Source of the DNA: Candidatus Latescibacterota bacterium | GTDB taxonomy: Bacteria; Latescibacterota; Latescibacteria; Latescibacterales; Latescibacteraceae | Direction: 5' to 3' | NCBI GenBank assembly: GCA_016927495.1 | Contig: JAFGMP010000009.1 | Coordinates: 937-64,936, forward strand | Length of the DNA stretch: 64,000 bases | Shown: one piece after another, positions 9,975 to 39,971 of the stretch | Position numbering within the stretch: the stretch's first letter is position 1 | How the letters are laid out: each line of letters starts with the position of its first letter | Notes under the pieces: model-generated | What the model was told of the DNA's origin: nothing | Databases searched by the model: none | What the model saw: the letters and a program-made list of their open reading frames with translations, nothing else | Position numbers and translations under genes: made by a program

Positions 9975-9986
9975 GAAGGAGCGGTA

Positions 9987-13069: not shown

Positions 13070-13723
13070 ATGGCAGCCGATGAAAATAAAAATACTGTGG
13101 AACAGGAAGAACTGGATAACAGCGAAAGCGCCGAAGAGACTGATGTCGATGAGGCAACTGAAAAGGATACGGAACCTGAAGAGGATGATCTTGAAGCTCA
13201 AATGGCTGCGGCCATGGCTGAAGATAGCGGTGATGATGCTGTTGACGACCTTGAGGCTGAGATGGCCGCAACGATGGCGCTTGAAAGTGAAGAAGATGAT
13301 GGAGATCTTGATCTTGAAGCCCAGATGGCTGCGGCTATGCAGGAAGATGATATGGACAGTATTGACGATGCCTTATCTCTGGGTGATAATCGTCGCCCGG
13401 GTAAAGATATTCCCGTGAAATCTCTTGAATTCCAGCAATTGAGGCCATCCGATGAGATTGTTGAGTCGGATAATATTGACAGGCTTTTGGACGTTTCTTT
13501 GAATATATCAGTGGAACTCGGAAGAAAACAGATGCAGATTAAAGAGATACTTGGGCTTGGCCCCGGAAAAATAATCGAGCTTGATAAACTTGCAGGTGAG
13601 CCTGTCGATCTTCTCGTGAACGGTAAACTTCTTGCTAAGGGTGAAGTTGTCGTCGTGGATGAAAACTTCGGAGTTCGTATAACCGACCTTATTAATCCCC
13701 AGGACCGAATAAAAATGCTTTGA
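13070..13723 (+). CDS. fliN: Flagellar motor switch protein FliN/FliY with N-terminal acidic tandem repeats
   Basis: C-terminal SpoA/FliN domain ([40 protein letters not shown]). GGAGG at 13052 and ATG at 13070. The N-terminus carries three LEAQMAAAM-acidic repeats. Confidence 0.85.
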
Positions 13724-13857: not shown

Positions 13858-14409
13858 GTGCATAGTTTATTCGGCAATCGAATCCAATCGATCCCTCAAA
13901 GTGAGAAGATATCAGTGTTGAACAATCTGGTTCGTCAGGTATACGCGAATTTATTTTCAGTGATATCTGCAACAGCGGAAACAGGGGATAGTACGGCTTT
14001 TTTATTGTCGGATACAACACGGTCAAGTGTCAACCTGTTTATACAAACCTTGCAGGTTATTGTTGCGCTTGGTGTTACAGTTGTTCTTCTTATTTGTGCC
14101 CTCTGGATTTTTAAAAGAGTAATAAACCTCAGGAATGTGACCGGTATTGCGGGAAGTTCAATGCGGGTTCTTGAAATACGGCATATTGATCCCAAAAAAT
14201 CAATTATTCTGGTTAAAGTCCTTGACAGGGTATTGATAATCGGTTGTACCGAAAATTCAATAACCGGTCTCGGGGAACTGTCTTCGGATGAGATAAGCAG
14301 ATTAAACATTACAGAACATGCGGAAATAAAAGTCTTTGATGCTATTCTTTCACGGATTACAGGTAAAGCGGGTACAAATTCGCCTGACGGGAACATTAAA
14401 AACAGATAA
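13858..14409 (+). CDS. fliO: Flagellar biosynthesis protein FliO/FliZ-like (start codon uncertain, non-ATG)
   Basis: Single TM (VIVALGVTVVLLICALWIF) and a position between fliN and fliP. There is no in-frame ATG before the TM, so the start is GTG at 13858, or GTG/TTG near 13915. Confidence 0.5.
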   Translation: MHSLFGNRIQSIPQSEKISVLNNLVRQVYANLFSVISATAETGDSTAFLLSDTTRSSVNLFIQTLQVIVALGVTVVLLICALWIFKRVINLRNVTGIAGSSMRVLEIRHIDPKKSIILVKVLDRVLIIGCTENSITGLGELSSDEISRLNITEHAEIKVFDAILSRITGKAGTNSPDGNIKNR

Positions 14410-21680: not shown

Positions 21681-22550
21681 ATGATGGAAAAACGCAGAGA
21701 TACTGGTGAGAGAAGAATTACCGGCGACCGCAGAAACATATTTGATCGCAGGAGCCACACCGATCGCAGAGCATCGGATGACCGTAGAAATCAAAACGAT
21801 TCGAAAGGCCTGTCAACATATCAAAAGATGTCTGTTGACAAAAAACGTGACGAGATGGTCAAAAACCATCTCAATCTGGTTAATTTCGTTGTTGCACGGT
21901 TATCGATCAGTCTGCCAAACTGGTTAGACAAACGTGATTTGATCAATGCTGGAGTAATAGGACTTATTGATGCGGTTAATCATTATGATCCATCAAAGGG
22001 AGTCAAATTTGAGACCTATGCATCAACCCGTATCAGAGGTGCAATTATCGACGAGTTACGCTCCCTTGATTGGATTCCACGATCGACACGGACGAAATCC
22101 AGGGAGATCGAATCTGCAATTTCGGGTCTGATTCATAAACTGGGACATATCCCAAGTGACGAAGAAGTATCAAAAGAACTTGGATGGGATATTGATAAGT
22201 ATCATAAGGCACTTGAACAGGTATCGGGTACGACACTGTTATCGCTGGATGAATTAATAACGACATCATCGGGAAGCGAACCGGTAAAAAGACTCGATAC
22301 GGTTTCAGGCGATGATGAAAACACTCTCGATACCATAGAGCGCCGTGAACTTGTAGAGAATGTTGTCATAATTCTCGGCACTCTTTCCGAACAGGAAAAA
22401 CTCGCTATTGCACTTTATTATTATGAGGAATTGACACTTAAAGAAATCGGTTTGGTTCTGGAAGTATCGGAATCAAGGGTGTCGCAGATTCATACTGCGG
22501 CAATTTTAAAATTGAGAGCTAAATTGAGGTCGTTGTATTCCGGCTCTTAA
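21681..22550 (+). CDS. fliA: Flagellar sigma factor FliA (sigma-28) with arginine/aspartate-rich N-terminal repeat extension
   Basis: Sigma-70 region 2/3/4 motifs (NLVNFVVARLS..., YYYEELTLKEIGLVLEVSESRVSQIH). Size and position after flhG fit FliA. The N-terminal roughly 45 aa carry DRR-type repeats. Confidence 0.85.
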   Translation: MMEKRRDTGERRITGDRRNIFDRRSHTDRRASDDRRNQNDSKGLSTYQKMSVDKKRDEMVKNHLNLVNFVVARLSISLPNWLDKRDLINAGVIGLIDAVNHYDPSKGVKFETYASTRIRGAIIDELRSLDWIPRSTRTKSREIESAISGLIHKLGHIPSDEEVSKELGWDIDKYHKALEQVSGTTLLSLDELITTSSGSEPVKRLDTVSGDDENTLDTIERRELVENVVIILGTLSEQEKLAIALYYYEELTLKEIGLVLEVSESRVSQIHTAAILKLRAKLRSLYSGS

Positions 22551-22912
22551 TGGGAGATTTACTCATGGTTCGGCCGATAGAACTTACGGATTCACTTTCA
22601 AAGGTCCAGGCTGTCGAGCAAATGCAGCAGGATGCAAAAACTCGTCCCGAAGCATTACATCAATTTCAGAAAACGCTTACTGACAAACAGACTGAACAGT
22701 TGAGAACTTCACCGAATCCGGTGCCTGAAAGCGACCAGGTTGTTATCCATGTTAATGAGCAGGAAAAAGATAAGCATAAAACTGCGGAAGATGAACGTGA
22801 TAGCAAAATGCACAGGGATGGTGAAAAACAAGATCCGAAAGAGAACGGACAAAACGCAAGCAGAAAAAAAGACGGTCATACTTCCCCTGGCCATATTGAC
22901 ATAAAAGCCTGA
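22550..22912 (+). CDS. Hypothetical acidic/basic low-complexity protein, translationally coupled to fliA (TAATGG overlap)
   Basis: 120-aa ORF whose ATG overlaps the fliA stop. No recognisable domain. The C-terminal half is K/E/D-rich and low complexity. Confidence 0.4.
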   Translation: MGDLLMVRPIELTDSLSKVQAVEQMQQDAKTRPEALHQFQKTLTDKQTEQLRTSPNPVPESDQVVIHVNEQEKDKHKTAEDERDSKMHRDGEKQDPKENGQNASRKKDGHTSPGHIDIKA

Positions 22913-23248: not shown

Positions 23249-24868
23249 ATGTGTTCTGTGCGAATAAATCCTCAAAAAATTGCCGAAAACCTTATGATAA
23301 AACAAGTTGAAACAAAAACTGTTACAACTGGAGATTCGGCAAATTCTGTCGAAATAAAAAATATTGGTGAGACTTTGTCCGGCCGATTATTGTCGCTGTT
23401 TGACACAAAAGGCGGTAATGTACCTCGCTCGACAATTCTCGACATTGCATCGAAACTTGCGGCTTTGGATATGAAACCCTCTGATGTTGATGGTGATATC
23501 GCGCTGAAAGCGCTTTTGCTACAACATAATAATATTCCCCTGAGTCGGGAGTTACTTCTGGACAGCTTTGAGAGCGATCCGGCGGTTTTCACAAAATTGA
23601 ACACTCTTGTCGATAGTGTACTCACTGCGTTGAGTGATTCGAGAGTAACCGGTGAGATAAGGACAACGCTTGGTATATTCATTAAAAATCTTGACTCATT
23701 ATTCAGGCCTGAGTCGATGCAGGAAGCTGTCCGAAATACTTTGACCGATCATGTATCGGAATGGTCCCGCTCAATTGAGTTGAAAATTCTTTCACTTCTG
23801 TTAAATAATCCTGAAGCAATTCGAGCCGCACCGATGGAACATGTATCCTCTGCCGAAGTGATGCTTATGCTCTCGGATGCTGCGCAGAAAAATCCTCAGA
23901 TAGACGTATTGATGGAAAAGCTTGGTGACATAACCGGTAAATTATTATCACGGTTATATGAACTCAATCCGGGAACTGATGAATTTAATGTCGGTATCAG
24001 ACAGGCAGTTGCCGTATTATCCAAACATCTGACGGATCTTATCCCGGATATTAACGCAATTTTACAAAACTCGGGTAATCCGATCCTTTCTGATGATGTT
24101 TTAGCCGTTTTTTTCAGTGAACACATACAGTTATTGGAGGAAAAACTGCTCAGCGCACTTGAATCCGTATCTTCGAAAAGCGTGATGAGTGGATCAGTAA
24201 TACGGAGTGAGGTAAATATACCGTTGCACAAAATGTTGAGAAACAGCGGTATGTCGTTTGAATGGCAATTACTGGCATGGTATCGTTCGGGTAAAAATCC
24301 GGAAAGACTTCGCGAGCTTATGCAGCGTGATATTAAGGGCATTCTCGATAAGTTTATGACCGATCTGAACTTATATAGAAAAAAAAGCTCCGGCAAAAGT
24401 ATATTAAAAAACCTCGAACGTGAAGCAAAATCTGTGCTTGACTGTATTACTCAGCGTCAGATTTCCAATATTCTGCAGGATCGTGGAACCGGTGGGAAAG
24501 TATATTTCGAACTGCCGCTCGGCAATCTCCGCGATAAAGATAATGCACGGGTAACTGCAGAAGGTGGTCAAAAATCAGAAGAAAATGGGTTAAATCCGGA
24601 AAATTTCAATCTTTCGTTCGATGTCGAGACTACCGGACTGGGACGATTGTATGTTACTATGAATGTACAGAAAAAAAACATTTCACTCGAGTTTTTAGTG
24701 AGGGATGATAATGTTATCACTCAGGCGCATACAATTGAACATGAGCTTGTCGACTCATTGTTTTCACGGGGATTTTCCGTTAATTCGTTAAGTTTTGATG
24801 TAATCAGAGATAACATCGCGTTCAATAAGAATAAATCGAATAGACGCAGTATGGATATAAAGGGATGA
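23249..24868 (+). CDS. Second FliK-like protein (Flg_hook C-terminal domain)
   Basis: The C-terminus (NFNLSFDVETTGLGRLYVTMNVQKKNISLEFLVRDDNVITQAHTIEHELVDSLFSRGFSV) resembles the FliK/Flg_hook domain. It is paired with an FlhB-CTD-like gene, as in Firmicutes FliK-like/YlqH pairs. The start is uncertain, possibly MIKQVETK at 23294. Confidence 0.55.
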   Translation: MCSVRINPQKIAENLMIKQVETKTVTTGDSANSVEIKNIGETLSGRLLSLFDTKGGNVPRSTILDIASKLAALDMKPSDVDGDIALKALLLQHNNIPLSRELLLDSFESDPAVFTKLNTLVDSVLTALSDSRVTGEIRTTLGIFIKNLDSLFRPESMQEAVRNTLTDHVSEWSRSIELKILSLLLNNPEAIRAAPMEHVSSAEVMLMLSDAAQKNPQIDVLMEKLGDITGKLLSRLYELNPGTDEFNVGIRQAVAVLSKHLTDLIPDINAILQNSGNPILSDDVLAVFFSEHIQLLEEKLLSALESVSSKSVMSGSVIRSEVNIPLHKMLRNSGMSFEWQLLAWYRSGKNPERLRELMQRDIKGILDKFMTDLNLYRKKSSGKSILKNLEREAKSVLDCITQRQISNILQDRGTGGKVYFELPLGNLRDKDNARVTAEGGQKSEENGLNPENFNLSFDVETTGLGRLYVTMNVQKKNISLEFLVRDDNVITQAHTIEHELVDSLFSRGFSVNSLSFDVIRDNIAFNKNKSNRRSMDIKG

Positions 24869-25167
24869 ATAAGAGGCAATCTAAAAAAAATATCGAGGGA
24901 CGAAAAGCCGCTGCAGCTCTTCGTTACAAAATGGATGAAGATGTTGCTCCGAAACTTGTAGCTAAAGGAACAGGTAGAATTGCAGAAAAGATAATCGAAA
25001 CTGCCAGGGAAGCAGGAGTACCTATTTATGAAGATCCGGATCTTATTGCTCTTCTTTTGACTTTGAACATAGGAGAATTTATTCCACCGGAACTGTACAT
25101 TTCTATTGCGGAAGTACTGGCTTTTATATACCGTTTAAACAAGAAATCGTTTGAATCTGTTTATTAG
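24865..25167 (+). CDS. FlhB C-terminal-domain-like protein (YlqH-like)
   Basis: 100-aa protein (KLVAKGTGRIAEKIIETAREAGVPIYEDPDLIALLLTLNIGEFIPPELYISIAEVLAFIY) resembling the soluble C-terminal domain of FlhB/YscU but lacking NPTH. It overlaps the upstream gene by 4 nt. Confidence 0.7.
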   Translation: MNKRQSKKNIEGRKAAAALRYKMDEDVAPKLVAKGTGRIAEKIIETAREAGVPIYEDPDLIALLLTLNIGEFIPPELYISIAEVLAFIYRLNKKSFESVY

Positions 25168-25187: not shown

Positions 25188-26024
25188 ATGGCTGATTCTT
25201 CGGAAATAATCAAGAACATGCGAGTTCTCTTTGACATAAGCGCCCTTATTCGTACCGACACTAAACTCGAACTGAAGTTTGAACAGGTATTGGAGAAAGT
25301 GAAGGATGCCGCTTGCTGTCAATCGGTAAGTCTTTTTATAGCTGATGACAGCGGAAAACTTGAGGAAATCGCGACAATCGGAACACCGGTAGAACTCATT
25401 AAAACAATTGATTTTGACATGGGAAGCGGATTTAGCGCCTGGGTTGCAAAACAGCGGAAATCGGTGTTAATACCCAATCTCAGAGAAAGCAGGCATAAAC
25501 ATTTCAGGTCATTCGTCTCAACCCCTCTGATTTCCAATGACCGTCTGATAGGTGTTATGAATCTAGGACATGAAGAACCGGATGCTTTTACCGAAGAAAA
25601 TCTGCAACTCTTCGAAATAATTGCTGAACAGCTTGCACTGATGATTGAGCGAACTAATTATGAACAGGAACTGATAAAGAAAAATGAAGCGCTTGTTGAG
25701 GCTCAGGATGAAATTAAAAAACAGAATAAACAAATTATTGAAATGGAAAAATTTCATGTTATGGCACAAATGGCGGCCTCTGTCAACCATGAAATCAACA
25801 ACCCTTTAACATCGGTGATAGGAAATGTTGAACTAATACTTATGTCACGGCAGGATTTGGACGATATTGTCAGGAAAAAGCTAACGGTTGTTCTTGAAGA
25901 AGCGCACCGTATCGGGAAAATTACACAGAAACTGCGTGATATGAAACGGATTGTTGTAGAAGATTACCTGAAGAAAACGGAAGAAAAGATGATCGACCTC
26001 GACTCTTCAAGTTCATTAGATTAA
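25188..26024 (+). CDS. GAF domain plus HisKA (DHp) protein lacking an ATPase (HATPase_c) domain
   Basis: N-terminal GAF-like region (SVSLFIADDSGKLEEIATIG...LIGVMNLGHEE), a coiled coil, then an H-box (MAQMAASVNHEINNPLTSVIGNVELIL). The ORF ends about 60 aa later with no G1/G2 boxes. A terminator follows, so no downstream ATPase ORF exists. Confidence 0.7.
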   Translation: MADSSEIIKNMRVLFDISALIRTDTKLELKFEQVLEKVKDAACCQSVSLFIADDSGKLEEIATIGTPVELIKTIDFDMGSGFSAWVAKQRKSVLIPNLRESRHKHFRSFVSTPLISNDRLIGVMNLGHEEPDAFTEENLQLFEIIAEQLALMIERTNYEQELIKKNEALVEAQDEIKKQNKQIIEMEKFHVMAQMAASVNHEINNPLTSVIGNVELILMSRQDLDDIVRKKLTVVLEEAHRIGKITQKLRDMKRIVVEDYLKKTEEKMIDLDSSSSLD

Positions 26025-26145
26025 ACGGAAAATCTTTCCTGAAAAGGGAATAAACTTCTTTCAGCTTGTGTGAAAAATGATGCCTAATATAAAAATAGAA
26101 TGAGAAATCTTGATGTAAAGCAAATAATATCAATATATTAAGTAG

Positions 26146-26177
26146 ACCGGCGATTAAAAATATCGCCGGTTTTTTTA
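26146..26177 (+). terminator. Rho-independent terminator (ACCGGCGAT-taaaaat-ATCGCCGGT then TTTTTTT)
   Basis: Perfect 9-bp GC-rich stem, 7-nt loop and a 7-T run, about 120 nt after the GAF-DHp gene. Confidence 0.8.
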
Positions 26178-26178
26178 T

Positions 26179-26192
26179 GGCATGACTGTTGC
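26179..26192 (+). promoter_or_regulatory. Candidate sigma-54 (-24/-12) promoter TGGCATgactgTTGCA upstream of flgF-flgG-flgA-flgH-flgI-flgJ
   Basis: GG at 26179-26180 and GC at 26191-26192 with 12-nt spacing. Matches TGGCAC-N5-TTGCA at 10 of 11 conserved positions. It lies about 140 nt upstream of flgF, immediately after the terminator. Confidence 0.55.
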
Positions 26193-26330
26193 AATTGAGT
26201 ATGCTGGAATTAAAATTTGATACATTGAATTCATGTTAACAACTCATACCGGGTCATGACAGACTAATCATATTCATGTATTAATAGGGCTTTGAAAATG
26301 AAACAAAAAAATAAACTGTGGGGAATATAA

Positions 26331-27074
26331 ATGGTAAAAGGGATTTATCTTTCAGCCTATGGTATGATTCCACGAATAAACCAGCAGAACGCCATAGCGA
26401 ATAATCTGGCTAATATGTCGACACAGGGCTTTAAAAAGACCGATATCTTTCTTCGGGAACTTATAACTGCTGACAATGCGCTTGATCATGCCCTTGGGGC
26501 TGATCGGTCACAGGTTGCCGAAGATCCCAGAATTAATTATACCCAGGGCACATTCGAAGTCACTGGTAACGATTTTGATCTTGCATTGAATGGTCCAGGT
26601 TTTCTTAGGGTTCGTGACACCGCCGGTAATATTCTCTACACCCGTAACGGCAGGTTTTATCTGGATAATAACGGATTTATGGTTAACAACGAGGGTATGT
26701 ATCTGTTGAATGACCGTCTTAATCTTATCAATATTCAGGGCGGGGAAGTCATTATTTACGGTAACGGGAATATTTTGGTGGATGGAGAAGATGCGGCTAC
26801 GATCGGCCTCGCCGACTTTGCTCCTGCCGATTATGTTAATTTACAAGCAATAGGCAAGCAACAGTTTCTAAAACCTGCAGCGGTTAATGAAATAAGGCCG
26901 AGTGTAGCGACTGTATTTATGCAGGGGCATCTGGAAGATTCGAATGTGGATTCTATAAAATCGATGGTGGATATGATCGAGACGTTCAGGATGTTCGAAT
27001 TAGGACAGAAATCGATACAAATTCAAGATCAGTCACTGCAGAGAGTCGTTAATGAAGTTGGAATAGTACGGTAA
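26331..27074 (+). CDS. flgF: Flagellar basal-body rod protein FlgF
   Basis: Flg_bb_rod N-terminus (AIANNLANMSTQGFKK) and Flg_bbr_C (DSIKSMVDMIETFRMFELGQKSIQ). Confidence 0.85.
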   Translation: MVKGIYLSAYGMIPRINQQNAIANNLANMSTQGFKKTDIFLRELITADNALDHALGADRSQVAEDPRINYTQGTFEVTGNDFDLALNGPGFLRVRDTAGNILYTRNGRFYLDNNGFMVNNEGMYLLNDRLNLINIQGGEVIIYGNGNILVDGEDAATIGLADFAPADYVNLQAIGKQQFLKPAAVNEIRPSVATVFMQGHLEDSNVDSIKSMVDMIETFRMFELGQKSIQIQDQSLQRVVNEVGIVR

Positions 27075-27890: not shown

Positions 27891-28610
27891 ATGAAAACTA
27901 TCCTGAATTTTTTATGTATTATACTAGCCGCTTTATTGCTGCGGGCGGCAGATCCAACTATGGTTTACGCTGCGGTGGTGCCTGCTGAAAGAATCCGGGA
28001 CGCTATTATCGACATTCTGATGACACGCGCTGATGCATCCGGTATTGAAATCGAGGTATCAGTGAAAAACATGGTCGATATAGAGGTCAGGAATGTAGAT
28101 TCACCGACTATGAACGTTATAATACCTGAGGATAGTAAAATCGATTCACGTGTTCCCGTCCGGATCGAATTCAGCGACGAATCCGGGGGTATCAGAAAAC
28201 GCTTTCAGGTTATGGCTCAGATAAAAATAATGAAAACAGTTGTTGTAGCCTGTTCCGAAATTAACCGCGGAGAACCTGTGAACATCGATGATGTCGAAAT
28301 GAAAAAAATTGACGTAACGGGTATGAACACATACTTTGAAACGCCATCCTTGCTTGAAGGTATGCAGACAAAAAGATCTGTCAGGCCCGGCATGGTTTTA
28401 AACGATACCAATGTATGTCCGATTCCGGTTGTAAATCGCGGTGATCCTGTTACGATAAAGGTTTTCATCGGGAATATCAGGGCTGTTGCCGAAGGCATTG
28501 CCCGTCAGGACGGTGGAGTCGGTGAGATGATAAAGGTCTATAATGAAATGACCAGAACAACTCTTGATTGTATGATTATCGATGGGAAAACAGTGCGGAC
28601 AGGATTATGA
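27891..28610 (+). CDS. flgA: Flagellar P-ring assembly chaperone FlgA
   Basis: Signal peptide plus SAF-like C-terminal domain (VNRGDPVTIKVFIGNIRAVAEGIARQDGGVGEMIKV), located before flgH/flgI. Confidence 0.75.
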   Translation: MKTILNFLCIILAALLLRAADPTMVYAAVVPAERIRDAIIDILMTRADASGIEIEVSVKNMVDIEVRNVDSPTMNVIIPEDSKIDSRVPVRIEFSDESGGIRKRFQVMAQIKIMKTVVVACSEINRGEPVNIDDVEMKKIDVTGMNTYFETPSLLEGMQTKRSVRPGMVLNDTNVCPIPVVNRGDPVTIKVFIGNIRAVAEGIARQDGGVGEMIKVYNEMTRTTLDCMIIDGKTVRTGL

Positions 28611-28719
28611 TTGTTTTATTCTATTGTTCTCAATGGATTGGTGTTGGTGGTGGAATCCGAAAATATATCAAAGATGTTGAACTATATTAATTTTTAATAA
28701 AAAATAATGTTAGCAGAAG

Positions 28720-29346
28720 TTGAACGATGGGGGTTATATGAGATTATTCTATAATATACTATTTATAATTGTTTTTTCAGCCTGTTTTGCCATATCGGTA
28801 TTTGCTCAATCTCCTTCCGGGAGTGCTTCTGTTCCCGGTTGGTCCTCATCGCTGTATAGTGATGTCAAAGCTTACAAGATAGGAGATGTTTTGTCTGTTA
28901 TTATTGCGGAATCAAACTCGGCTTCCAAAAATTCACAGACATCGACCAAAAAACAAAATAAAACTGCTGCTGACGGCAGTGCAACCACCGGAGCGCTGAG
29001 TGGGCTTTTCCCGGGGATGAGCGGCTCGATTGATGCTTCCAATCAGTTTAACGGACAGGGCTCAACAGTACGAAACGGTAAACTGGACAGCCGTATCACT
29101 GTTAAAGTGATCGATGTATTAGCGAACAATAACCTTCTAATCGAGGGTTCCAAGACTCTGGAACTTAACGAAGACACCGAAGTTGTAACAATATCGGGTG
29201 TTGTCCAGCCGGAATATATTAGTTCCGATAATTCGGTTTACTCATACCAGATAGCCAATGCAAAAATAGTATATAAAGGCAAAGGTTCGGTTTCACAGGG
29301 ACACCGGCCAGGATTCTTAACAAGAATAATCAACTGGATACTCTAA
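28720..29346 (+). CDS. flgH: Flagellar L-ring lipoprotein FlgH
   Basis: Lipoprotein signal (IVFSAC), the FlgH family motif (KAYKIGDVLSVIIAESNSASK) and a C-terminal LLIEGSKTLELNEDTEVVTISGVV. Confidence 0.85.
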   Translation: MNDGGYMRLFYNILFIIVFSACFAISVFAQSPSGSASVPGWSSSLYSDVKAYKIGDVLSVIIAESNSASKNSQTSTKKQNKTAADGSATTGALSGLFPGMSGSIDASNQFNGQGSTVRNGKLDSRITVKVIDVLANNNLLIEGSKTLELNEDTEVVTISGVVQPEYISSDNSVYSYQIANAKIVYKGKGSVSQGHRPGFLTRIINWIL

Positions 29347-29348
29347 GG

Positions 29349-30446
29349 ATGAACAATATGACGAAACGATATATTATCTTCGGTATTAGTCTGTTTTTAC
29401 TATGTACGACCATAACTATCTCTTTTGCTCAGGTGAGATTAAAGGATATGGCGGTTATTCGAGACCAGCGTGAAGTCCAGCTCATCGGATATGGTCTTGT
29501 TGTGGGCCTTAACGGTACCGGTGACGGAAAGAATACACAGTTTACCATACGCATGATAGGAAATATGATGAAACGTATGGGTGTGGAAGTTCCTGCGACG
29601 AGTATAAAGGTAAAAAATGTTGCCGCCGTTATGGTAACCGCTACCGTTTCACCTTATGTAAAGAGCGGCGGCGCTTTTGATGTCACCGTATCATCGCTTG
29701 GTGATGCGTCGAGTCTCGAAGGTGGTACTCTGCTCATGACACAATTAACCGGGCCTGACGGTCTTGTTTATGCATCTGCCCAGGGAGCAATCAGCGTCGG
29801 AGGTTCAAACAGGAATTATGGCGGTGGTGGTATTGTTGAGAACATCGAGCTGGTGGGAAGAGTTTCTGATGGCGGTATTCTTGACCATGAGTTTCCAACC
29901 ATAAGCACGGAAGAGCGAAGTCTTATGGTAAATTTAAGAAGCCCGGATTATACAACGGCTTATCGCGTGGCAACGGCGATCAATGAAACATTTTTACAGA
30001 ATATTGCAAACCCGCGCGATGCCGGCAGTATAATCATCAATGTACCGGAAGAATACGTACAAGCCTCCGGAATTGTCAGGTTTATCTCGGAAATGGAAGC
30101 TATTACGTTTGTTCCTGATGAAAAAGCTAAGGTTATAATAAATGAGCGAACTGGGACGATAGTTGCAGGAAGCAACGTAAGTCTCAGTCCGGTGGCGATA
30201 ATGCACGGCACATTATCGTTGGTAATCGAAGAACCTGGAGCCGCAGGGCAGGCTCAGCAGGCGGCGCCAGGTCTGCCCGGAGCAGAACCGGTCGGGGACC
30301 GTATGGTGACTCTTAACGAAACTGCGAATGTCGGTGAGGTTGCTAAAGCTCTCAATCTTCTCGGCGCAACACCCCGTGACCTGATTGCAATTTTTCAGGC
30401 GCTAAAGAGTGCGGGTTCGCTCAGAGCAGAACTGGTAATTATTTAA
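29349..30446 (+). CDS. flgI: Flagellar P-ring protein FlgI
   Basis: RLKDMAVIRDQREVQLIGYGLVVGLNGTGDG is a near-consensus FlgI N-terminus. 365 aa with a signal peptide. Confidence 0.9.
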   Translation: MNNMTKRYIIFGISLFLLCTTITISFAQVRLKDMAVIRDQREVQLIGYGLVVGLNGTGDGKNTQFTIRMIGNMMKRMGVEVPATSIKVKNVAAVMVTATVSPYVKSGGAFDVTVSSLGDASSLEGGTLLMTQLTGPDGLVYASAQGAISVGGSNRNYGGGGIVENIELVGRVSDGGILDHEFPTISTEERSLMVNLRSPDYTTAYRVATAINETFLQNIANPRDAGSIIINVPEEYVQASGIVRFISEMEAITFVPDEKAKVIINERTGTIVAGSNVSLSPVAIMHGTLSLVIEEPGAAGQAQQAAPGLPGAEPVGDRMVTLNETANVGEVAKALNLLGATPRDLIAIFQALKSAGSLRAELVII

Positions 30447-31527: not shown

Positions 31528-32919
31528 ATGTCATCATTGTTTTACGGATTAAATATCGGGAAAAACACACTCGCTGCTCAGACCAGTGTAATCAATACAG
31601 TATCCCATAATGTGGCAAATGCAAATACACCGGGCTATTCCCGTCAAACGGTAAACCTTATAGCTATTTCAGATGATACATCCAACGGCAGATTTGGGGT
31701 AGGACTCAGAATCGGAGGAGGGGCTGATGCGGCATCGGTTACCCGTTCAAGGTTCGGGCTGTATGATCTGATATATAGAAATGAGAGCCAGGATTATAAT
31801 GCATTCAGTAAAATGGAAGAAATGGTTAACCAGATAGAATTATTGTTCGATGAACCTTCGGAGCGTGGGCTGGGCGGTATTTTTAATGATTTCTTTAATG
31901 CATGGCAGGAAGTCGGCAACGATCCTTCGAGTATGGCGGCACGAAACAGTCTTAAAAGTATTGGCGATGAATTAACCAGCCGTATGCACCGTATTTATAA
32001 TCAACTTCTCACCATGCAATTAGATGTCGACAATGAAATAGCCACTACACCTCAACGACTCAATGAAATAGCCAGTGAAATTGCGGATTTAAATGCTTCA
32101 ATTCGAATATCCACCGTTCAGGGACAGGGTGGAAACGATCTGCGTGATAAACGTGATTTGCTTGTTGATGAGATGTCGGAATTTGCTGATGTACGTGTTG
32201 TAGAAAAAAGTGACGGAACCTATACTGTTCTTGTCGGTACCAATGTTGTGGTAGAACGGGATACATATTCCGAATTATCGGTTACTACACAGTCTACCGG
32301 TGGAAGGAATGTTAAAAGAACGGTTATTGTTTCAGCCGATGGTAATGAATATGAGCCGACAAGCGGTAAATTAGGAGCACTCATAGAAATTCGCGATAAT
32401 ATCATACCGGGAATAACCGATGAATTGAATACGATTGCCGATGCTTTGGTTACTTATGTCAATTTTGAACACCGTAACGGCTACGGAGTTGATGGGAAAA
32501 CAAATCGTAACTTTTTCGATCCTACCAGGACCAAGGCATTCAACATATCTCTTTCAACTGATATTGACGATGTATCCAATATTGCTGTTTCCGGTGATGG
32601 TTCCAAAGGTGATAATACTAATGCAATGAATATGGTGCAATTAAAAGACAATAATGTAATTAAAAATAGTTTCACCCTTAGCGAGTATTATAATTCACTG
32701 ATTGCCGACATCGGTATTCTTGGCAGCGAAGCCCGGTCGGGACGTCAAAATGAGGAATTGTTAATAACTCAGGTTGACAATGCACGGGAATCGATCAAAG
32801 GTGTCAGTATCGATGAAGAACTTATTCATTTAATACAGTCACAGCATATTTATCAGAGCGCTTCACGATTAATTGTTACACTGGACGAACTGCTGGATGT
32901 CGTCGTTAATTTGACGTAG
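31528..32919 (+). CDS. flgK: Flagellar hook-associated protein 1 FlgK
   Basis: N-terminal MSSLFYGLNIGKNTLAAQTSVINTVSHNVANANTPGYSRQ and a C-terminal Flg_bbr_C-like region. Confidence 0.9.
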   Translation: MSSLFYGLNIGKNTLAAQTSVINTVSHNVANANTPGYSRQTVNLIAISDDTSNGRFGVGLRIGGGADAASVTRSRFGLYDLIYRNESQDYNAFSKMEEMVNQIELLFDEPSERGLGGIFNDFFNAWQEVGNDPSSMAARNSLKSIGDELTSRMHRIYNQLLTMQLDVDNEIATTPQRLNEIASEIADLNASIRISTVQGQGGNDLRDKRDLLVDEMSEFADVRVVEKSDGTYTVLVGTNVVVERDTYSELSVTTQSTGGRNVKRTVIVSADGNEYEPTSGKLGALIEIRDNIIPGITDELNTIADALVTYVNFEHRNGYGVDGKTNRNFFDPTRTKAFNISLSTDIDDVSNIAVSGDGSKGDNTNAMNMVQLKDNNVIKNSFTLSEYYNSLIADIGILGSEARSGRQNEELLITQVDNARESIKGVSIDEELIHLIQSQHIYQSASRLIVTLDELLDVVVNLT

Positions 32920-32967
32920 AGAATTCAAGTGCACGTGTAATCGAAATAGAGAAGTGAGATTTCCATT

Positions 32968-33870
32968 ATGAGAATCACCGACAGAATTATGCATAACAGC
33001 TTAATCTCTAATCTTTCATTTTCAACGGAACGCCTTTATGAGAGTGAAATGAGAGTATTGACAAACAAAAAACTGAATAAACCATCAGATGGCCCTGTTG
33101 ATGTTCTGAACTCACTTGCTATCAGAGAAAAAATTAGCGAGATTGAACAATACCAGAGGAATATTTCACGGGCCCAAACGATTCTACAAAACACGGAAAC
33201 AATCGTTTCACAGGTTGGCGAGGTGTATCAAAGACTTAACGAATTGACAATTCAGGGAGCTTCCGATTCCTATGGGGCATCTGATAAATTATCGATTTCT
33301 TATGAGGTCAATCAATTGCTTGAACAGTTACTCAATTTTGCCAATAATAAATCGGAAGCCTCATATACATTCGGAGGAACGAACATCGACGCCCAGCCAT
33401 ACCTTGCTATTCGAAATGATGAAGGTGAAATTGTAGAAATAAAAACTTCGGGTACCGGTGGCGATATTAACAGTATGATTGGTGAAAACATAAAGATAAA
33501 AGTTAATGTGAACGGAGAGGACCTGTTCGAAGATAGCATAAATTTATTTGATGTCGTCATTCAGATACGGGATAATCTGAAAGCAAATAATACCGATGGT
33601 GTAAGAGAACAGCTCACCGGTTTGCAGGAAGGTACTGAAAAAATATTGAATCATCAGGCAATTATCGGTTCACGTTTAAACCGTATCAATGCCGCTGAAT
33701 CCCGTGCTGAAAACGATGTGATCAGTTTTACGGAATTTCTTTCGAATACCGAAGATGTAGATGCATCGGAAGCAGTTATGGATTACCAGATGGATCTGCT
33801 TACGCTGCAATATTCACTTCAGGCCGGTTCACGGTTGATGCAGCCAAAACTTGCCGACTTTTTGGGTTAA
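32968..33870 (+). CDS. flgL: Flagellar hook-associated protein 3 FlgL
   Basis: MRITDRIMHNSLISNLSFSTERLYESEMRVLTNKKLNKPSDGPVD, with a flagellin-like N/C terminus. It follows flgK. Confidence 0.85.
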   Translation: MRITDRIMHNSLISNLSFSTERLYESEMRVLTNKKLNKPSDGPVDVLNSLAIREKISEIEQYQRNISRAQTILQNTETIVSQVGEVYQRLNELTIQGASDSYGASDKLSISYEVNQLLEQLLNFANNKSEASYTFGGTNIDAQPYLAIRNDEGEIVEIKTSGTGGDINSMIGENIKIKVNVNGEDLFEDSINLFDVVIQIRDNLKANNTDGVREQLTGLQEGTEKILNHQAIIGSRLNRINAAESRAENDVISFTEFLSNTEDVDASEAVMDYQMDLLTLQYSLQAGSRLMQPKLADFLG

Positions 33871-34525: not shown

Positions 34526-35353
34526 CTATTGAGCGGTGAGTTCTTTTAATTTTTCCCGTGCGAGATCAGCCTCTTCAGATTTAGCGTAGCTTTTTATTAC
34601 CTGGTTCAGGGTTGACCGGCCACTTTTGACATCGCCTTTTTCTATCTGGGCAAAACCAATTTTCAACAGCGCCGCCCGCGCTTTGGGGGATTTTGAATAT
34701 TTTTTACGTACGGTTTCAAACTCTTTGATTGCGAGGTCATATTTTTTTTGCGCATAGATTGACTCGGCAAGCCAATATTGTGCATTAGGAGCCAGGGAAT
34801 GATCGGGGAATTGTAGTATAAATGATAAGAAACGGCTTTCAGCAAGAGCAAAATTATTATCCTCAATGTCTGTAAGCGCAGATTCGTATAACTTTTCGGG
34901 ATCAGGTTTAATATTTGTGACCGGAGATGAGTAAGCATTTGTATTATCTGCAGAAGGTTGGGAAGACGGCGCTGACACAGATTTATTCTCTCCGGCTTTT
35001 GATTCCAGTCCTCCATATAACTGGATTGTTTCAAGTTTCGACAGCAGGTTTTTCAACAGATAATTTATATCATCCTGCCGGGCTGTTATCATGGAGATGT
35101 TTTCATTTTGCTCGCGGGATTGTGTGCCGAGTATAGCGCGCATGCTCTGTGATAACATTATTTGTTCATGAATCAGGCTGTCAATCATGGAAACTGAACT
35201 TTCGAGTGCAGACAGGCGTTCGCTGAAATCACGCGCATTGATTTGTGATTCACGGTGCATTTCAGTAAAGTCTGTTTTTGTCGCACAGGAAACAAATATA
35301 ACAGTGCAGCATATTAAACACGCCTGCAACTTCAGGATGCTCATATTCATCAC
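34526..35353 (-). CDS. ybgF: Tol-Pal system protein YbgF/CpoB (TPR repeats)
   Basis: Signal peptide, coiled coil and C-terminal TPR repeats (YQLAESIYAQKKYDLAIKEFETVRKKYSKSPKARAALLKIGFAQIEKGD). It is the last gene of the tol-pal operon. Confidence 0.75.
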   Translation of the reverse strand: MMNMSILKLQACLICCTVIFVSCATKTDFTEMHRESQINARDFSERLSALESSVSMIDSLIHEQIMLSQSMRAILGTQSREQNENISMITARQDDINYLLKNLLSKLETIQLYGGLESKAGENKSVSAPSSQPSADNTNAYSSPVTNIKPDPEKLYESALTDIEDNNFALAESRFLSFILQFPDHSLAPNAQYWLAESIYAQKKYDLAIKEFETVRKKYSKSPKARAALLKIGFAQIEKGDVKSGRSTLNQVIKSYAKSEEADLAREKLKELTAQ

Positions 35354-35502
35354 ATTTCACCTTACCATGATCGATACAATTTTGCCATAAAAAAGACAGT
35401 AGTCAGAAGACTGAAATTTAAACCAATGAATGTGTGCGCATTATCGGGATATCATCTTTTTAAAATCTGTGTTCAGTCTGCTGACTACTGTAGTGAAAAT
35501 AA

Positions 35503-36039
35503 TTATTGCGATGTTATTTTGAACTCGCCCCGACGGTTTTGAGACCATGAGGATTCGTTATGGCCTGATGAAACAGGTCTTTCTTCCCCGTAGGAAATGG
35601 TCGAAATCCGTGAGCTTGAGATGCCGTAATCGATTAAATACTGTTTAATCGCATCGGCGCGCCGCTGTCCGAGTGCCATGTTGTATTCATCGGTACCGCG
35701 TTCGTCGCAATGACCTTCGATTCTGATTCTGATAGTGCTGTTGTCACTGAGAAGCCGTGCATTGTTACTTAAATTACTTCTCTGGTCAGATTTGATATCA
35801 GATTTATCGAAGTCAAAATAAACGGTATTGAACTGAGATTCACTGATAGCGACTTTTTCGACAATTTTACGTTCCGGTTCTTTGACCTGTGGTTTTGGAG
35901 CAGGCTTCTTTTCCTGTACGACAGGCGCCGGTTTTGGAGGTGGTGTCTCCGCTTTCTTTTTTGCACAACCATTAAAGCTTGCGAGTGTCAATAAAAGACC
36001 GAGCACAAATACAACTGCAACGTTCCCTTTTTTGTACAT
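35503..36039 (-). CDS. pal: Peptidoglycan-associated lipoprotein Pal (OmpA family)
   Basis: Lipobox (LASFNGC) and an OmpA-like domain (VYFDFDKSDIK...IRIEGHCDERGTDEYNMALGQRRADAIKQYL). MYKKGN start at 36039 with an AAAGGA RBS. The ORF-track start at 36150 is too far upstream. Confidence 0.9.
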   Translation of the reverse strand: MYKKGNVAVVFVLGLLLTLASFNGCAKKKAETPPPKPAPVVQEKKPAPKPQVKEPERKIVEKVAISESQFNTVYFDFDKSDIKSDQRSNLSNNARLLSDNSTIRIRIEGHCDERGTDEYNMALGQRRADAIKQYLIDYGISSSRISTISYGEERPVSSGHNESSWSQNRRGEFKITSQ

Positions 36040-36076
36040 CTTGTAATCCTTTCTTAAGAGGTTTCGGAACTTTTCC

Positions 36077-37420
36077 CTACCGTCGCGAAGATACGCGTAT
36101 ATCATCTCCAGATGAGGTAGGTGCCCATGCTGGTGATAAACTATTTCCATCTTTTGTTAGGGGACGTATATCAGATCCATCCCAGTTCATGACAAAAAGG
36201 TTTTTCCCTCCCAATCTGTTTGATGTGAACAGAATCTTTAAACCGTCCGGAGACCATTTAGGATTTTCATTTGACCCGCTGCCGTAAGTCAGCATAATCA
36301 TTTCGTCGCCGTTAAGGTTTATCGTTGCTATATCAAAACCATAATCACTCAAAATGACAAATGCAATGAGATTTCCCCGTGGTGACCAGCATGGAGAGTC
36401 TTCATACGTATCGAGCGACGGCGTCAAACGCCGTATTCCCGATCCATCGCTGTTCATGATATAAACTTTAGGCATACCCGACCGGTCGGATGTAAATGCT
36501 ATCTTTGAACCGTCCGGCGACCATGTTGGCGATGAATCTATTCCGAAATGATTTGTCAGTCGTCTCAGGTCTTTTCCGTTCCTGCGACAGGTATATATCT
36601 CAGCGTTTCCATCTCTCGTCGATGTAAACGCGATAATGTCAGGGTTAGTAGGGTTCCATGAAGGAGATGTATTCAATCCGGGCCACTGTGAAATATCGAG
36701 AGTCTGTCCGGTATTGACATTAATCATAACAATAGCCCAGTTTTCGTTATTGAGTGACGAATAGGCTATAGATTCTCCATTGGAAGACCAACTCGGCGAC
36801 AGATTGAGGGTACGTGAAAAAGTCATCTGCCGTCGCCTTCTGCCATCAGGATCCATGAGAAAAAGGTCTTTATATTCACCGTTTGAACGTACAAAAGCAA
36901 TCTGTGAAGCCAAAGATCCGCGTACGCCGTTATATATGCCAATAATATCGTCAGCGATAACATGGGCGGTATACCACGGTCTGTCAGCAATAATCAGATA
37001 CTCTTCTTCGAACAGCGTGACCGCGGTTTTAAGATCTATTGCCTTTACACTGACTGCCGTACTATTCTGTGTTTCGATTCCGTAAATCAAACATGAAGCA
37101 TTTGCGGCCTTCCATATCTCGAACATACTTTGAGACGCACTCTGAAGGCTGTCGGGGATTTCTTTAACCTGGAATAATCCACAGTAATTAAGATCATCGG
37201 CAAGTGTCGACTTAACTTCAGAAATTAGGCCTGAAGTTCCGGTTGTATTAAAACCTTCTATTCCGATTCCAATTAGTTTGGAACCCCCCGCTCTGATAGA
37301 AAGCGTTACTTCCGATTGCGCAGACGCCTCAAAAACCGAACTAACTAATATAATATAATAAAAGAACAGGACATGCAAATAAAACGAATACTTTTTTTGA
37401 AAACAACTATTTTTATTCAT
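36077..37420 (-). CDS. tolB: Tol-Pal system beta-propeller protein TolB
   Basis: Signal peptide, TolB N-domain and WD40-like PD40 repeats (SPSWSSNGESIAYSS, SPSWNPTNPDIIAFTS, SPTWSPDGSKIAFTS). Confidence 0.9.
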   Translation of the reverse strand: MNKNSCFQKKYSFYLHVLFFYYIILVSSVFEASAQSEVTLSIRAGGSKLIGIGIEGFNTTGTSGLISEVKSTLADDLNYCGLFQVKEIPDSLQSASQSMFEIWKAANASCLIYGIETQNSTAVSVKAIDLKTAVTLFEEEYLIIADRPWYTAHVIADDIIGIYNGVRGSLASQIAFVRSNGEYKDLFLMDPDGRRRRQMTFSRTLNLSPSWSSNGESIAYSSLNNENWAIVMINVNTGQTLDISQWPGLNTSPSWNPTNPDIIAFTSTRDGNAEIYTCRRNGKDLRRLTNHFGIDSSPTWSPDGSKIAFTSDRSGMPKVYIMNSDGSGIRRLTPSLDTYEDSPCWSPRGNLIAFVILSDYGFDIATINLNGDEMIMLTYGSGSNENPKWSPDGLKILFTSNRLGGKNLFVMNWDGSDIRPLTKDGNSLSPAWAPTSSGDDIRVSSRR

Positions 37421-37432
37421 ATATTAATTTAC

Positions 37433-38047
37433 CTAAGCCGGATCATAAATAAAGTTTATATGTACACCCAGTCCATCTTCCTTAAACTCATCGGGCAGTG
37501 GAGCGAATGGATTTGATTTATGTATTGCATCGTAAGCCGATCTGTCGAATCTGACGTTGCTTGTTGGTTTTTCGACTTTGATTATACCCTTTATGGTGCC
37601 GTCTTTTGAAATGCGAAAATAAATGGTTGTCGAGTATGATTCATTCAATCTGGGATACGACCAATTGAGAAGGATTCTATCTCTTAAGGCTACAAGATAA
37701 TCAAGATCTACTTCGGCATCCGTTTGAATTCCGGGCAGTTGTGTCCCTTTCTTTTTTTCGCTTTGATTTGTCTGCTGAGTTTCCGTTGTCTTGGCAGTTT
37801 GTTTACGCCGTTTTACTCTATTCGGAATCGCTTCTTCAGGTTTTATCTGAACCTGCGGTATATACCGTTTCGGTTCCTCCTTTACAACCGATTGTTTTAG
37901 CAAGCGCTCAATTTGCTGCGGAGATACGGTGGTTATAGGAACAACTGTTTCCGTAACATGTTTCTTGACGCCAATAAACGAGGTAACAATCAAACCGGTA
38001 AATACGGTTATATGTCCCGCTGCTGAAAATATTATTTCCCGCCACAT
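37433..38047 (-). CDS. tolA: TolA/TonB-like energy transducer (TonB C-terminal domain)
   Basis: N-terminal TM, a K/E/Q-rich linker and a TonB_C-like C-terminus. It sits between tolR and tolB. Confidence 0.7.
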   Translation of the reverse strand: MWREIIFSAAGHITVFTGLIVTSFIGVKKHVTETVVPITTVSPQQIERLLKQSVVKEEPKRYIPQVQIKPEEAIPNRVKRRKQTAKTTETQQTNQSEKKKGTQLPGIQTDAEVDLDYLVALRDRILLNWSYPRLNESYSTTIYFRISKDGTIKGIIKVEKPTSNVRFDRSAYDAIHKSNPFAPLPDEFKEDGLGVHINFIYDPA

Positions 38048-38068
38048 AATGACTCTTCCGGTACGAAA

Positions 38069-39739: not shown

Positions 39740-39766
39740 TAAAGTTTCTGCGTTCTTAACCGATAA
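39740..39766 (+). promoter_or_regulatory. Sigma-28 promoter TAAAGTTT-N11-aCCGATAA driving fliC, with a leader of about 200 nt
   Basis: TAAAGTTT at 39740-39747 and ACCGATAA at 39759-39766. Spacing is exactly the consensus. Confidence 0.75.
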
Positions 39767-39971
39767 TATAAGCAGGAAAACGAATGAGAAATAATGATAT
39801 AATTAAATAGATATAATAAAACCTTTTTCGTTAATGAAATTAAGGAGGTGATTGATCAGACAACACGATGAAAGCTGAGGTTTTACTTTTTTTAACGTTC
39901 GATATTAAATTTCAATAGCATGACGCATGGATGCGGACCTGATAAAAGGTCGACAAGGAGGTTATTAGACC

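Follow-up and report, generated by a model that had tools for sequence, protein, structure and literature searches.

In the flagellar gene cluster of a 64,000-nucleotide stretch of DNA from a Candidatus Latescibacterota bacterium (contig JAFGMP010000009.1; the whole stretch is termed the window in the following and positions are counted from its first nucleotide) the gene at positions 25188-26024 encodes a protein in which a GAF sensor domain is followed by a dimerisation and histidine phosphotransfer (DHp) domain of the HisKA type. The catalytic ATP-binding (CA) domain which would complete a sensor histidine kinase is absent from this protein, designated GAF-DHp. We find the same architecture in orthologues from several bacterial phyla, with an almost unvaried phosphorylation motif and a recurrent position next to flagellar genes. 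The retention of the phosphate-accepting half, the absence of the ATP-binding half and the fixed flagellar place together suggest that, instead of being a kinase, GAF-DHp probably serves a flagellar regulator by removing or relaying phosphate. The gene and the parts of its product are as follows.

25188-26024, plus strand: GAF-DHp gene, ATG start, product of 278 amino acids (aa), catalytic ATP-binding domain absent
25266-25652, plus strand: GAF sensor domain (residues ~27-155; Pfam GAF_2)
25593-25763, plus strand: signalling helix leading from GAF to DHp (residues ~136-192), overlapping the C-terminal helix of the GAF domain (AlphaFold2)
25764-25952, plus strand: HisKA/DHp helical hairpin (residues 193-255; Pfam HisKA)
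25785-25808, plus strand: H-box N200-L207 (NHEINNPL) within the DHp domain
25788-25790, plus strand: codon of His201, the phospho-acceptor histidine of the H-box
25953-26021, plus strand: family-specific C-terminal tail VVEDYLKKTEEKMIDLDSSSSLD (residues 256-278), predicted to form a beta-hairpin

Pfam recognises two domains only, GAF_2 (residues 33-154, E 1e-18) and HisKA (residues 193-255, E 6e-13), and the H-box quoted in an earlier note on this DNA (VNHEINNPLTSVIGNVELIL) is present. The matches to NCBIfam models are all partial and stay below threshold; on the DHp side they concern AtoS, PhoR, ZraS and kinases like them, on the GAF side NifA, FhlA and PtsP. HATPase_c is detected by neither the Pfam nor the NCBIfam scan. 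A protein of 100% identity (P0001) is annotated as “GAF domain-containing protein” of Candidatus Latescibacteria. The polypeptide ends 77 aa past His201 and 23 aa past the DHp domain. In the AlphaFold2 model (mean pLDDT 84.9) an N-terminal helix precedes the GAF fold, from which a continuous helix (residues 136-220) extends, followed by a return helix (226-250) and the tail, whose strands comprise residues 257-261 and 266-269. In combined fold and sequence searches the family profile matches GAF structures of the PtsP, Nlh1 and NifA type and also DHp domains of kinases, the fold search alone re-identifying only the GAF domain. The protein is cytoplasmic (soluble) and probably dimeric. A profile-profile alignment with full-length GAF kinases spans residues 4-255 with a probability of 100% and ends at residue 255, so that the tail is not recognisably the beginning of a CA domain or of a DHp-CA linker; the guess from the sequence that it might be a vestige of the first CA strand was dropped for this reason.

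CA domains of neighbouring kinases, about 30 in number, served to build a hidden Markov model (HMM), with which all six frames of the window were searched (stop-to-stop open reading frames, ORFs, with a minimum of 40 aa; E up to 1). Its sole match is the following gene.

51415-52692, minus strand: full-length GAF-HisKA-HATPase_c kinase (Pfam)

Thus, this search reveals neither a CA-only ORF nor a CA remnant in any frame near the GAF-DHp gene, and within the 46-kb flagellar cluster of the window it detects neither a kinase nor a CA-only gene, which rules out a hidden or frameshifted CA domain. The earlier note had described a GAF-DHp protein devoid of an ATPase domain and had proposed to look for HATPase_c in its C-terminus and in the frames downstream; this search has come back empty and the description stands. 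Measured against a canonical sensor histidine kinase (HisKA plus HATPase_c), the protein possesses a DHp domain with a phospho-acceptor histidine and is devoid of a CA domain with N, G1 and G2 boxes in cis. As the CA domain is absent it is unable to phosphorylate itself.

The specific relation to the kinase at 51415-52692 which the earlier note had envisaged does not hold up. This kinase is encoded on the opposite strand 25 kb from GAF-DHp, outside the flagellar cluster and in a non-flagellar operon where it is co-transcribed with an AIR-synthase-family gene. Its alignment with GAF-DHp covers the GAF and DHp domains (E 3e-19) at 25% identity, and the first helix of its DHp domain is unlike that of GAF-DHp (SHELRNPLSGLKGASQLL vs. 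NHEINNPLTSVIGNVELIL). We also considered it as an orthologue of the kinases found next to fliA in other genomes, and as a partner. Its bit scores to these proteins amount to 157-174 for Latescibacterota and to 53-127 for others, which is not enough to establish orthology, and the DHp helices are unlike each other.

A protein search for relatives of GAF-DHp yielded about 98 clusters with lengths of approximately 190-360 aa (most of them 270-300 aa) and identities of 34-100%. GAF and HisKA are present in all of them except two fragments, HATPase_c in none. By means of a pattern and tblastn scan of a collection holding one genome per species 518 relatives were obtained, and the counts out of 80 loci given below refer to the best 80 of these 518. 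These 80 derive from Latescibacterota, Zixibacteria, Gemmatimonadales, Glassbacteria, Ignavibacteria-labelled genomes, Marinimicrobia, Cloacimonadota, Fidelibacterota, Delongbacteria and others; the family is spread across a group of mostly uncultured bacterial phyla. A cultured host was looked for and none was identified. In all of the 80 loci, and in all of the 86 orthologous ORFs compared, the ORF length amounts to 265-323 aa. The recurrence of these ATPase-less lengths rules out a sequencing or assembly truncation, and together with the stop codon and the terminator following it in the window it bears out the contention of the earlier note that no annotation split is at hand. In a profile search over 1.84 billion representatives the top of the list is occupied by giant multi-GAF proteins, whose scores are summed over their repeats.

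Sequence conservation was evaluated in an alignment of 39 sequences (32-86% identity) and in a set of 86 unique orthologues from across the phyla. Invariant in the former are H201, E202, I203, N204, N205, L207, G212 and N213 of the DHp domain, with P206 being nearly invariant (at least 90%), as well as F76, G79, G81, W85, A87, P113, G122 and V123 of the GAF domain. The H-E/D-x-x-N/T motif defined in PMC3591291 is therefore present as H201-E202-I203-N204-N205 in all 39 sequences. The octapeptide NHEINNPL is found exactly in 83 of the 86 orthologues and its histidine in 85. Judged from these alignments, the phospho-site of GAF-DHp is under purifying selection of near-absolute constraint. The tail follows the consensus EDY-L-x(2-6)-(K)M(I/L)x(L/I), with Tyr260 kept in at least 95% and Met268 in at least 80% of the 86 orthologues.

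The next-best matches to the protein of the window are HAMP-HisKA proteins of about 370 aa (P0100-P0119) which likewise lack HATPase. Two examples, encoded at 8001-9104 of locus L011 and 8001-9131 of locus L012, combine a DHp domain of the NHEINNPL type with the same C-terminal tail (EDYTSSGEQMINLDKS); both genes follow a patatin/Omp85 gene in a non-flagellar context. Since the tail is common to these proteins and to GAF-DHp, DHp plus tail constitutes a module in its own right. A conserved neighbour of about 200 aa, considered as a further common trait of both families, was discarded as the neighbour proteins are not homologous.

The 80 genome loci were annotated by BLAST with the proteins of the window and of the loci themselves. 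In 62 of them fliA precedes the GAF-DHp gene on the same strand at a distance of 1.1-5.7 kb. Some flagellar gene is present in 69 (six of the remaining 11 have short flanks), and flgF or flgG follows downstream in 30. The co-occurrence with flagellar loci which the earlier note had suggested to examine is thus borne out and, extending over several phyla, much broader than expected. Within this frame the immediate surroundings vary. A subset of Latescibacterota shares the arrangement of the window (fliA, small gene, FliK-like gene, flhB_rel, GAF-DHp, flgF) at 51-62% identity. In Marinimicrobia/Fidelibacterota and related genomes fliA is followed at some distance by a PAS-HisKA-HATPase kinase, a gap of 3-50 nucleotides (nt), GAF-DHp and flgF. 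The place of the PAS kinase is taken by a GAF-HisKA-HATPase kinase, two genes upstream of GAF-DHp, in the Latescibacterota loci L003 and L025, and in L003 CheZ and a receiver protein of 133 aa are encoded directly downstream of GAF-DHp. Loci of the Zixibacteria type contain, upstream, fliA, a small gene, a gene weakly matching DUF2802, DUF2225, two to three PilZ proteins, sometimes a receiver protein, and then GAF-DHp; downstream, the series continues with a PAS-GAF-HisKA protein, three receiver proteins, FapA and flgF, and stop codons frequently overlap with the next start codon. L014 and L095 accordingly present a receiver protein, GAF-DHp overlapping the gene of a PAS-GAF-HisKA protein with degenerate CA domain, and three receiver proteins, with 4-nt overlaps in L095. 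In Gemmatimonadales, Glassbacteria and Cloacimonadota GAF-DHp lies downstream of fliA among other neighbours.

Some of these neighbours deserve description in their own right. The PAS-GAF-HisKA proteins (565-607 aa; L014 10864-12570, L033 10878-12668, L039 10843-12633, L095 10840-12609 and others) end in a stretch of 150 aa which has the size of a CA domain and, in all 11 cases, lacks the N, G1 and G2 boxes, reminiscent of ChpT; the protein of L069 keeps a significant CA match. The receiver proteins of L014 are encoded at 9553-9975, 12570-12926, 13309-13698 and 13943-14359 and that of L003 at 7875-8276; the GAF kinase of L003 occupies 3887-5212 and the PAS kinase adjacent to GAF-DHp in L061 8759-10000. 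A second ATPase-less paralogue (VNHEINNPLTAI...; tail V[RK]YL) is encoded about 1.4 kb upstream of GAF-DHp in L040 (2153-3391, 412 aa) and L043 (7199-8578, 459 aa), and at the same position L036-L038 and L057 encode a kinase-like protein for which the HMM gives no CA-domain match.

In the window, the GAF-DHp gene is embedded between the following features.

21681-22550, plus strand: fliA, sigma factor of the sigma-28 type (Pfam Sigma70 r2, r3, r4), the conserved upstream landmark
22550-22912, plus strand: small conserved gene directly downstream of fliA, 120 aa, no Pfam family
23249-24868, plus strand: FliK-like gene, 539 aa, weak Flg_hook match (E 6e-4) under the Pfam gathering threshold, 4-nt overlap with the start of flhB_rel
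24865-25167, plus strand: flhB_rel, similar to the C-terminal domain of FlhB, 100 aa (Pfam Bac_export_2 at residues 16-88, E 3e-19)
26144-26179, plus strand: intrinsic terminator (stem-loop 26144-26172, 11-bp stem with 6 G-C pairs, 7-nt loop, T-run)
26178-26193, plus strand: sigma-54-type -24/-12 element TGGCATGACTGTTGCA upstream of flgF
26331-27074, plus strand: flgF, first gene of the rod/ring operon (Pfam Flg_bb_rod, LlgE_F_G_D1, Flg_bbr_C)

A mere 20 nt separate the end of flhB_rel from the start codon of GAF-DHp which, together with the 4-nt overlap further upstream, corroborates the tight, co-oriented spacing with FliK-like and FlhB-like genes described in the earlier note; GAF-DHp is operonic with both. 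Of the two labels used there, the similarity to the FlhB C-terminal domain is confirmed by the Bac_export_2 match (with TIGR00789 the protein scores E 1e-29 and 102 bits, under the curated cut-off of 117), and for the FliK-like gene the match to Flg_hook is weak and sub-threshold. FliK-like orthologues hold the equivalent position in L006, L016, L017, L028 and the locus of P0033. The strong terminator which the note had claimed at 26146 is located 120 nt downstream of the GAF-DHp stop codon and closes the flhA...fliA...GAF-DHp transcription unit; from the stop codon to flgF only 307 nt remain. As the gaps between fliA and GAF-DHp are short in close relatives, GAF-DHp is most likely the last gene of the flhA-flhF-flhG-fliA transcription unit.

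In the 64 kb TGGCAY-N5-TTGCW is matched exactly by TGGCATGACTGTTGCA and nowhere else (0.10 expected; 10 of 100 shuffled sequences contained one). A sigma-54-type element within 260 nt upstream of flgF recurs in 20 of 35 related loci compared to a background of 0.0095 per 320 nt, among them L005, L006, L014-L018, L028 and many loci of the Marinimicrobia type. The earlier note was right in placing GAF-DHp immediately upstream of a putative sigma-54-type promoter for the rod genes, here that of flgF. Upstream of the GAF-DHp or kinase genes themselves such elements were not found. Two further sigma-54-type sites of the window, both intergenic and on the plus strand, are TGGCATGTATGTTGCG at 1333-1348, ahead of the ORF at 1399, fliK, flgD and flgE, and TGGTATAATTTTTGCA at 9715-9730, between flgE and motA. 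These sites before the hook operon and motA are one-mismatch or variant matches, and with one mismatch allowed 13 sites are found where 6.6 are expected; as predicted sites they suggest that the hook and motor operons are sigma-54 dependent as well. A putative sigma-28-type promoter (TAAAG-N15-CCGATAA) at about 39741-39768 (plus strand) precedes the flagellin gene at 39972 and fits a hierarchy of sigma-54 followed by sigma-28. The putative sigma-54-type promoters argue for an NtrC-type activator encoded somewhere in the genome.

We tentatively favour the view that GAF-DHp would be a GAF-gated, ATP-independent DHp enzyme which acts on a receiver domain as phosphatase and/or phospho-shuttle via His201. 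The analysis shows the architecture, the lack of an ATPase domain, the conserved catalytic motif and the synteny, whereas we infer dimerisation, the receiver domain as partner, the chemistry (phosphatase or phosphotransfer) and the output. The protein would directly address a response regulator of the flagellum or of chemotaxis at its receiver domain. It would mainly serve as a signal-gated phosphatase of the phosphorylated regulator by means of the conserved H-E-x-x-N motif, and the phosphate could reside transiently on His201. A cytoplasmic ligand or a protein signal sensed by the GAF domain would set the activity and be passed on along the long helix. Given its place at the end of the flhA-flhF-flhG-fliA unit and just upstream of the sigma-54-dependent rod operon, GAF-DHp would be made together with the early export and sigma-28 genes. 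Its output might consist in adjusting how strongly the sigma-54-dependent rod and hook genes are expressed, by way of an NtrC-type activator whose gene lies elsewhere, or, alternatively, in tuning CheY-like motor regulators. The neighbourhoods containing receiver, CheZ and PilZ proteins argue instead for the CheY-like motor regulators. In the HisKA proteins studied the acidic residue following the histidine is needed for kinase and not for phosphatase activity, the reverse being true of Thr or Asn at position H+4 (PMC3510030); both positions, E202 and N205, are invariant in the GAF-DHp family.

Several observations weigh against this view. Pfam analysis of the scanned ORFs and tblastn reveal neither a response regulator nor a sigma-54 activator of the NtrC type in the window, so that the FlgR/FleR-type link put forward in the earlier note finds no counterpart there and stays an inference. 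Across lineages no single partner gene is conserved beside GAF-DHp in the 80 loci. On inspection, the first DHp helix, almost invariant in GAF-DHp, is unlike that of the adjacent kinases (HEINNPLTSIIG vs. HELSQPLSALKM), by which a regulator in common with those kinases is not indicated. The invariant E202, specific to autokinase activity in the HisKA proteins studied (PMC3510030), is unexplained by a role as phosphatase only, and the conserved C-terminal tail is without an assigned role.

Two related proposals were rejected. Common regulator-specificity residues with the adjacent kinases were dismissed as the helix-1 residues differ on inspection. Sigma-54 activator genes are no conserved neighbours either, occurring within 10 kb in two loci only, L059 (a Cloacimonadales chromosome) and L068 (an Ignavibacteriales-labelled genome). 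The NtrC-type proteins encoded there (receiver, sigma-54 activator and HTH_8 domains; L059 1798-3207 and L068 10352-11749, 6-8 kb from GAF-DHp) are candidate flagellar sigma-54 activators.

The invariant glutamate keeps alive an alternative which we regard as rather unlikely, namely that GAF-DHp provides the phosphate-accepting half in a split kinase or phosphorelay. In this case His201 would be phosphorylated in trans and would then donate to a second regulator, the phosphate originating either from a partner kinase and its CA domain (the kinase being a neighbour in many genomes and located elsewhere in the genome from which the window derives) or, as for Spo0B and ChpT, from back-transfer by a phosphorylated receiver. 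The invariance of both His201 and E202, the kinase-specific acidic residue of PMC3510030, is in line with this, as are the bona fide kinases which precede GAF-DHp at a distance of 3-50 nt in loci of the Marinimicrobia type and lie two genes ahead of it in L003 and L025, and the Zixibacteria-type operons, in which three to four single-domain receivers and the degenerate-CA DHp protein occur with no functional kinase in the operon. Precedents are provided by split kinases and by the 1.7% of HisKA proteins estimated to keep HE/DxxN/T without HATPase (PMC3591291). Yet the 46-kb flagellar cluster of the window offers no CA donor, the adjacent kinases of other phyla differ in type (PAS or GAF sensors, different H-boxes) and do not amount to a conserved kinase partner, and GAF-DHp possesses a tail of only 23 aa in place of the CA-like domain of Spo0B and ChpT.

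We consider it improbable that GAF-DHp is a non-catalytic adaptor or pseudokinase which signals by conformation only, binding a regulator, a flagellar protein or a kinase, in a heterodimer or otherwise; the heterodimerising inhibitor of the kinase at 51415-52692 which the earlier note had proposed belongs here. The missing ATPase domain conforms with such a role, the conserved family-specific tail could be a docking peptide, a repurposed kinase-like protein is on record in DivL (PMC4211667), and the domain layout equals that of the full-length kinase of the window over the aligned GAF and DHp domains. Without phosphoryl chemistry, however, it is difficult to account for H-box residues H, E, N and P being conserved almost absolutely from phylum to phylum. 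Nor is there a conserved linkage to a single type of kinase, and for the kinase of the window in particular the low identity, the dissimilar helix 1, the opposite strand and the non-flagellar operon speak against a heterodimer. A protein of the DivL type would, moreover, have its histidine replaced and its CA domain retained, whereas here the histidine is kept and the CA domain is absent. That the gene is a decaying kinase remnant or truncation product without function of its own, as the loss of a domain needed by normal kinases might suggest, is excluded for practical purposes by the conservation data, which comprise the same ATPase-less length across about 98 clusters of proteins and 80 or more species-level genomes of several phyla, invariant motifs and a conserved tail, besides the clean stop codon with terminator and the lack of a CA remnant in any frame.

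Compared with known systems, GAF-DHp corresponds in architecture to a class which is already catalogued, so that the novelty claimed in the earlier note was overstated in this respect. Sensor-HisKA proteins with the histidine and without HATPase are listed under “possible incomplete histidine kinase” by P2CS and as “HisKA, no HATPase” in PMC5847659 (Galperin et al. 2018); in the survey of Amin et al. 2013 (PMC3591291) they account for 3.66% of HisKA proteins, the fraction which also keeps the motif being the one given above. Phosphatase or phospho-acceptor roles have been proposed for them (PMC5847659 section 7; PMC3591291), and the class is without any experimentally studied member according to PMC5847659. 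With its N-terminal sensor (PAS or GAF in the class), its C-terminal HisKA domain containing the histidine and the absence of HATPase GAF-DHp falls under the definition of the “incomplete” class (PMC5847659 section 7). While this class has been catalogued mainly in archaea or as database counts, GAF-DHp represents a defined bacterial family with an H-box of its own (NHEINNPL), a conserved tail and a fixed flagellar place. The tie to flagellar loci is the part of the claimed novelty which stands, since no description of a GAF-HisKA protein tied to them was found in the literature; the flagellum-linked family appears to be undescribed so far.

In its manner of working GAF-DHp may, by analogy, most resemble a phosphotransferase of the Spo0B/ChpT type or the phosphatase and phosphodonor CheA3, yet it differs from each in a defining trait. 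Spo0B of Bacillus and ChpT of Caulobacter share the DHp-type hairpin, the phosphorylatable histidine and the lack of ATP binding, and both act between receiver domains (for ChpT, PMC3433190). In contrast to GAF-DHp, they keep a degenerate CA-like alpha/beta domain after DHp and have no sensor, where GAF-DHp has its GAF domain and the 23-aa tail; the Zixibacteria-type PAS-GAF-HisKA neighbours with their degenerate CA domain are closer to ChpT than GAF-DHp is. The receiver-rich operons of L014 and L095 are no more than suggestive of phosphotransfer from receiver to receiver. In the split kinases CheA3/CheA4 of Rhodobacter and Hik36/Hik43 of Synechocystis (the latter according to PMC7656254) phospho-acceptor and ATPase reside on separate polypeptides, and CheA3 is both phosphodonor and phosphatase for CheY6 in a motility pathway (PMC3591291). 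CheA3, however, employs an HPt (P1) domain instead of DHp, and a CA-only partner gene is missing from the window; the neighbours in other genomes are complete kinases or degenerate-CA proteins and not separate suppliers of a CA domain.

The flagellar checkpoint kinases FlgS, FlrB and FleS of Campylobacter, Helicobacter, Vibrio and Pseudomonas, which work with the NtrC-type regulators FlgR, FlrC and FleR, are soluble HisKA sensors in flagellar regulons with sigma-54-dependent rod and hook operons; they are complete kinases, and the activator gene is usually adjacent. GAF-DHp resembles them as a HisKA sensor among flagellar genes with a sigma-54-type element before flgF and possibly before the hook and mot operons, a likeness of context. 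It differs from the pairing of complete kinase and cognate activator in having no CA domain and no activator gene nearby, and the PAS-HisKA-HATPase kinase beside GAF-DHp in Marinimicrobia-type loci is the better analogue of FlgS and FlrB. The isolated DHp domain of EnvZ (“domain A”) can be phosphorylated in trans and keeps phosphatase activity towards its regulator. While this domain, whose in vitro split is cited in PMC3591291, is an engineered fragment, the DHp-only state of GAF-DHp is natural and conserved.

The flagellar cluster as a whole extends from position 1 to about 46 kb of the window. It starts with fliJ, a 1288-aa FliK, flgD, flgE, motAB, fliL, fliM and fliO, continues with ORFs assigned to fliPQR, flhB, flhA, flhF and flhG by position and BLAST matches in related loci rather than by domain scan, and proceeds through fliA, the 120-aa gene, the FliK-like gene, flhB_rel, GAF-DHp, the terminator and the sigma-54-type site to flgF and flgG. 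The ORFs at 27891-30446 were assigned to flgA, flgH and flgI in the same manner, and a rod-binding protein, flgN, the ORFs at 31528-33870 (flgK and flgL by position) and fliW follow. A tol-pal-type cluster on the minus strand (34526-39129: TPR protein, OmpA-family Pal, TolB, TonB_2/TolA-like, ExbD/TolR and MotA/TolQ) splits the flagellar cluster between fliW and csrA, behind which csrA, flagellin, flaG, fliD and fliS complete it. FliD, the filament cap protein, is unusually long with 1004 aa (41308-44322, plus strand). The window contains two FliK-type genes on the plus strand, that of the 1288-aa FliK with a good Flg_hook match (2010-5876) and the 539-aa FliK-like one (23249-24868). The flhB_rel product begins just past the position of the NPTH cleavage site, and the pair of FliK-like gene and flhB_rel is kept only in a subset of Latescibacterota.

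In FliA, sigma region 2 is preceded by an N-terminal extension of ~40 aa made up of repeats rich in Asp and Arg (RRDTGERRITGDRRNIFDRRSHTDRRASDDRRNQND; 21681 to ~21800, plus strand). Homologous small proteins of about 100-120 aa, assigned to no known family, are encoded directly after fliA in each of the window (22550-22912), L003 (3510-3821), L001 (6965-7315), L014 (6240-6539) and L095 (5412-5711), with the conserved motifs V.P..L...LSKT..VE at the N-terminus and IDI.V at the C-terminus. No match to FlgM was obtained among the scanned ORFs of the window, and the small protein may be a candidate anti-sigma-28 factor. The same function was considered for GAF-DHp, as it follows fliA and no scanned ORF matched FlgM, and was judged unlikely since the constrained residues are those of the phospho-site.

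A few percent of HisKA proteins are naturally without ATPase, and essentially none of these has a known role. The GAF-DHp family, with its invariant phospho-site, its distinctive tail and its fixed address between fliA and the sigma-54 rod operon across phyla, constitutes an unusually clean test case. For specialists in two-component signalling and flagellar regulation it is the conservation and the fixed position which are notable, the general architecture not being new and the function being a proposal. A wider proposal, to which we assign a low probability, is that GAF-DHp might be an ancestral flagellum-dedicated component of the phyla of the Fibrobacteres-Chlorobi-Bacteroidetes group, an ATP-independent DHp enzyme with a new docking tail setting the phosphorylation of the regulator which licenses the sigma-54 rod and hook genes, or of CheY-like motor regulators; if true, it would represent a kinase-less version of the flagellar checkpoint of the FlgS/FlrB type. 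Solving GAF-DHp would show whether a lone DHp domain serves naturally as phosphatase, phospho-shuttle or scaffold, and would also give access to the control of flagellar genes and motors in a large section of the bacterial tree, most of it uncultured.

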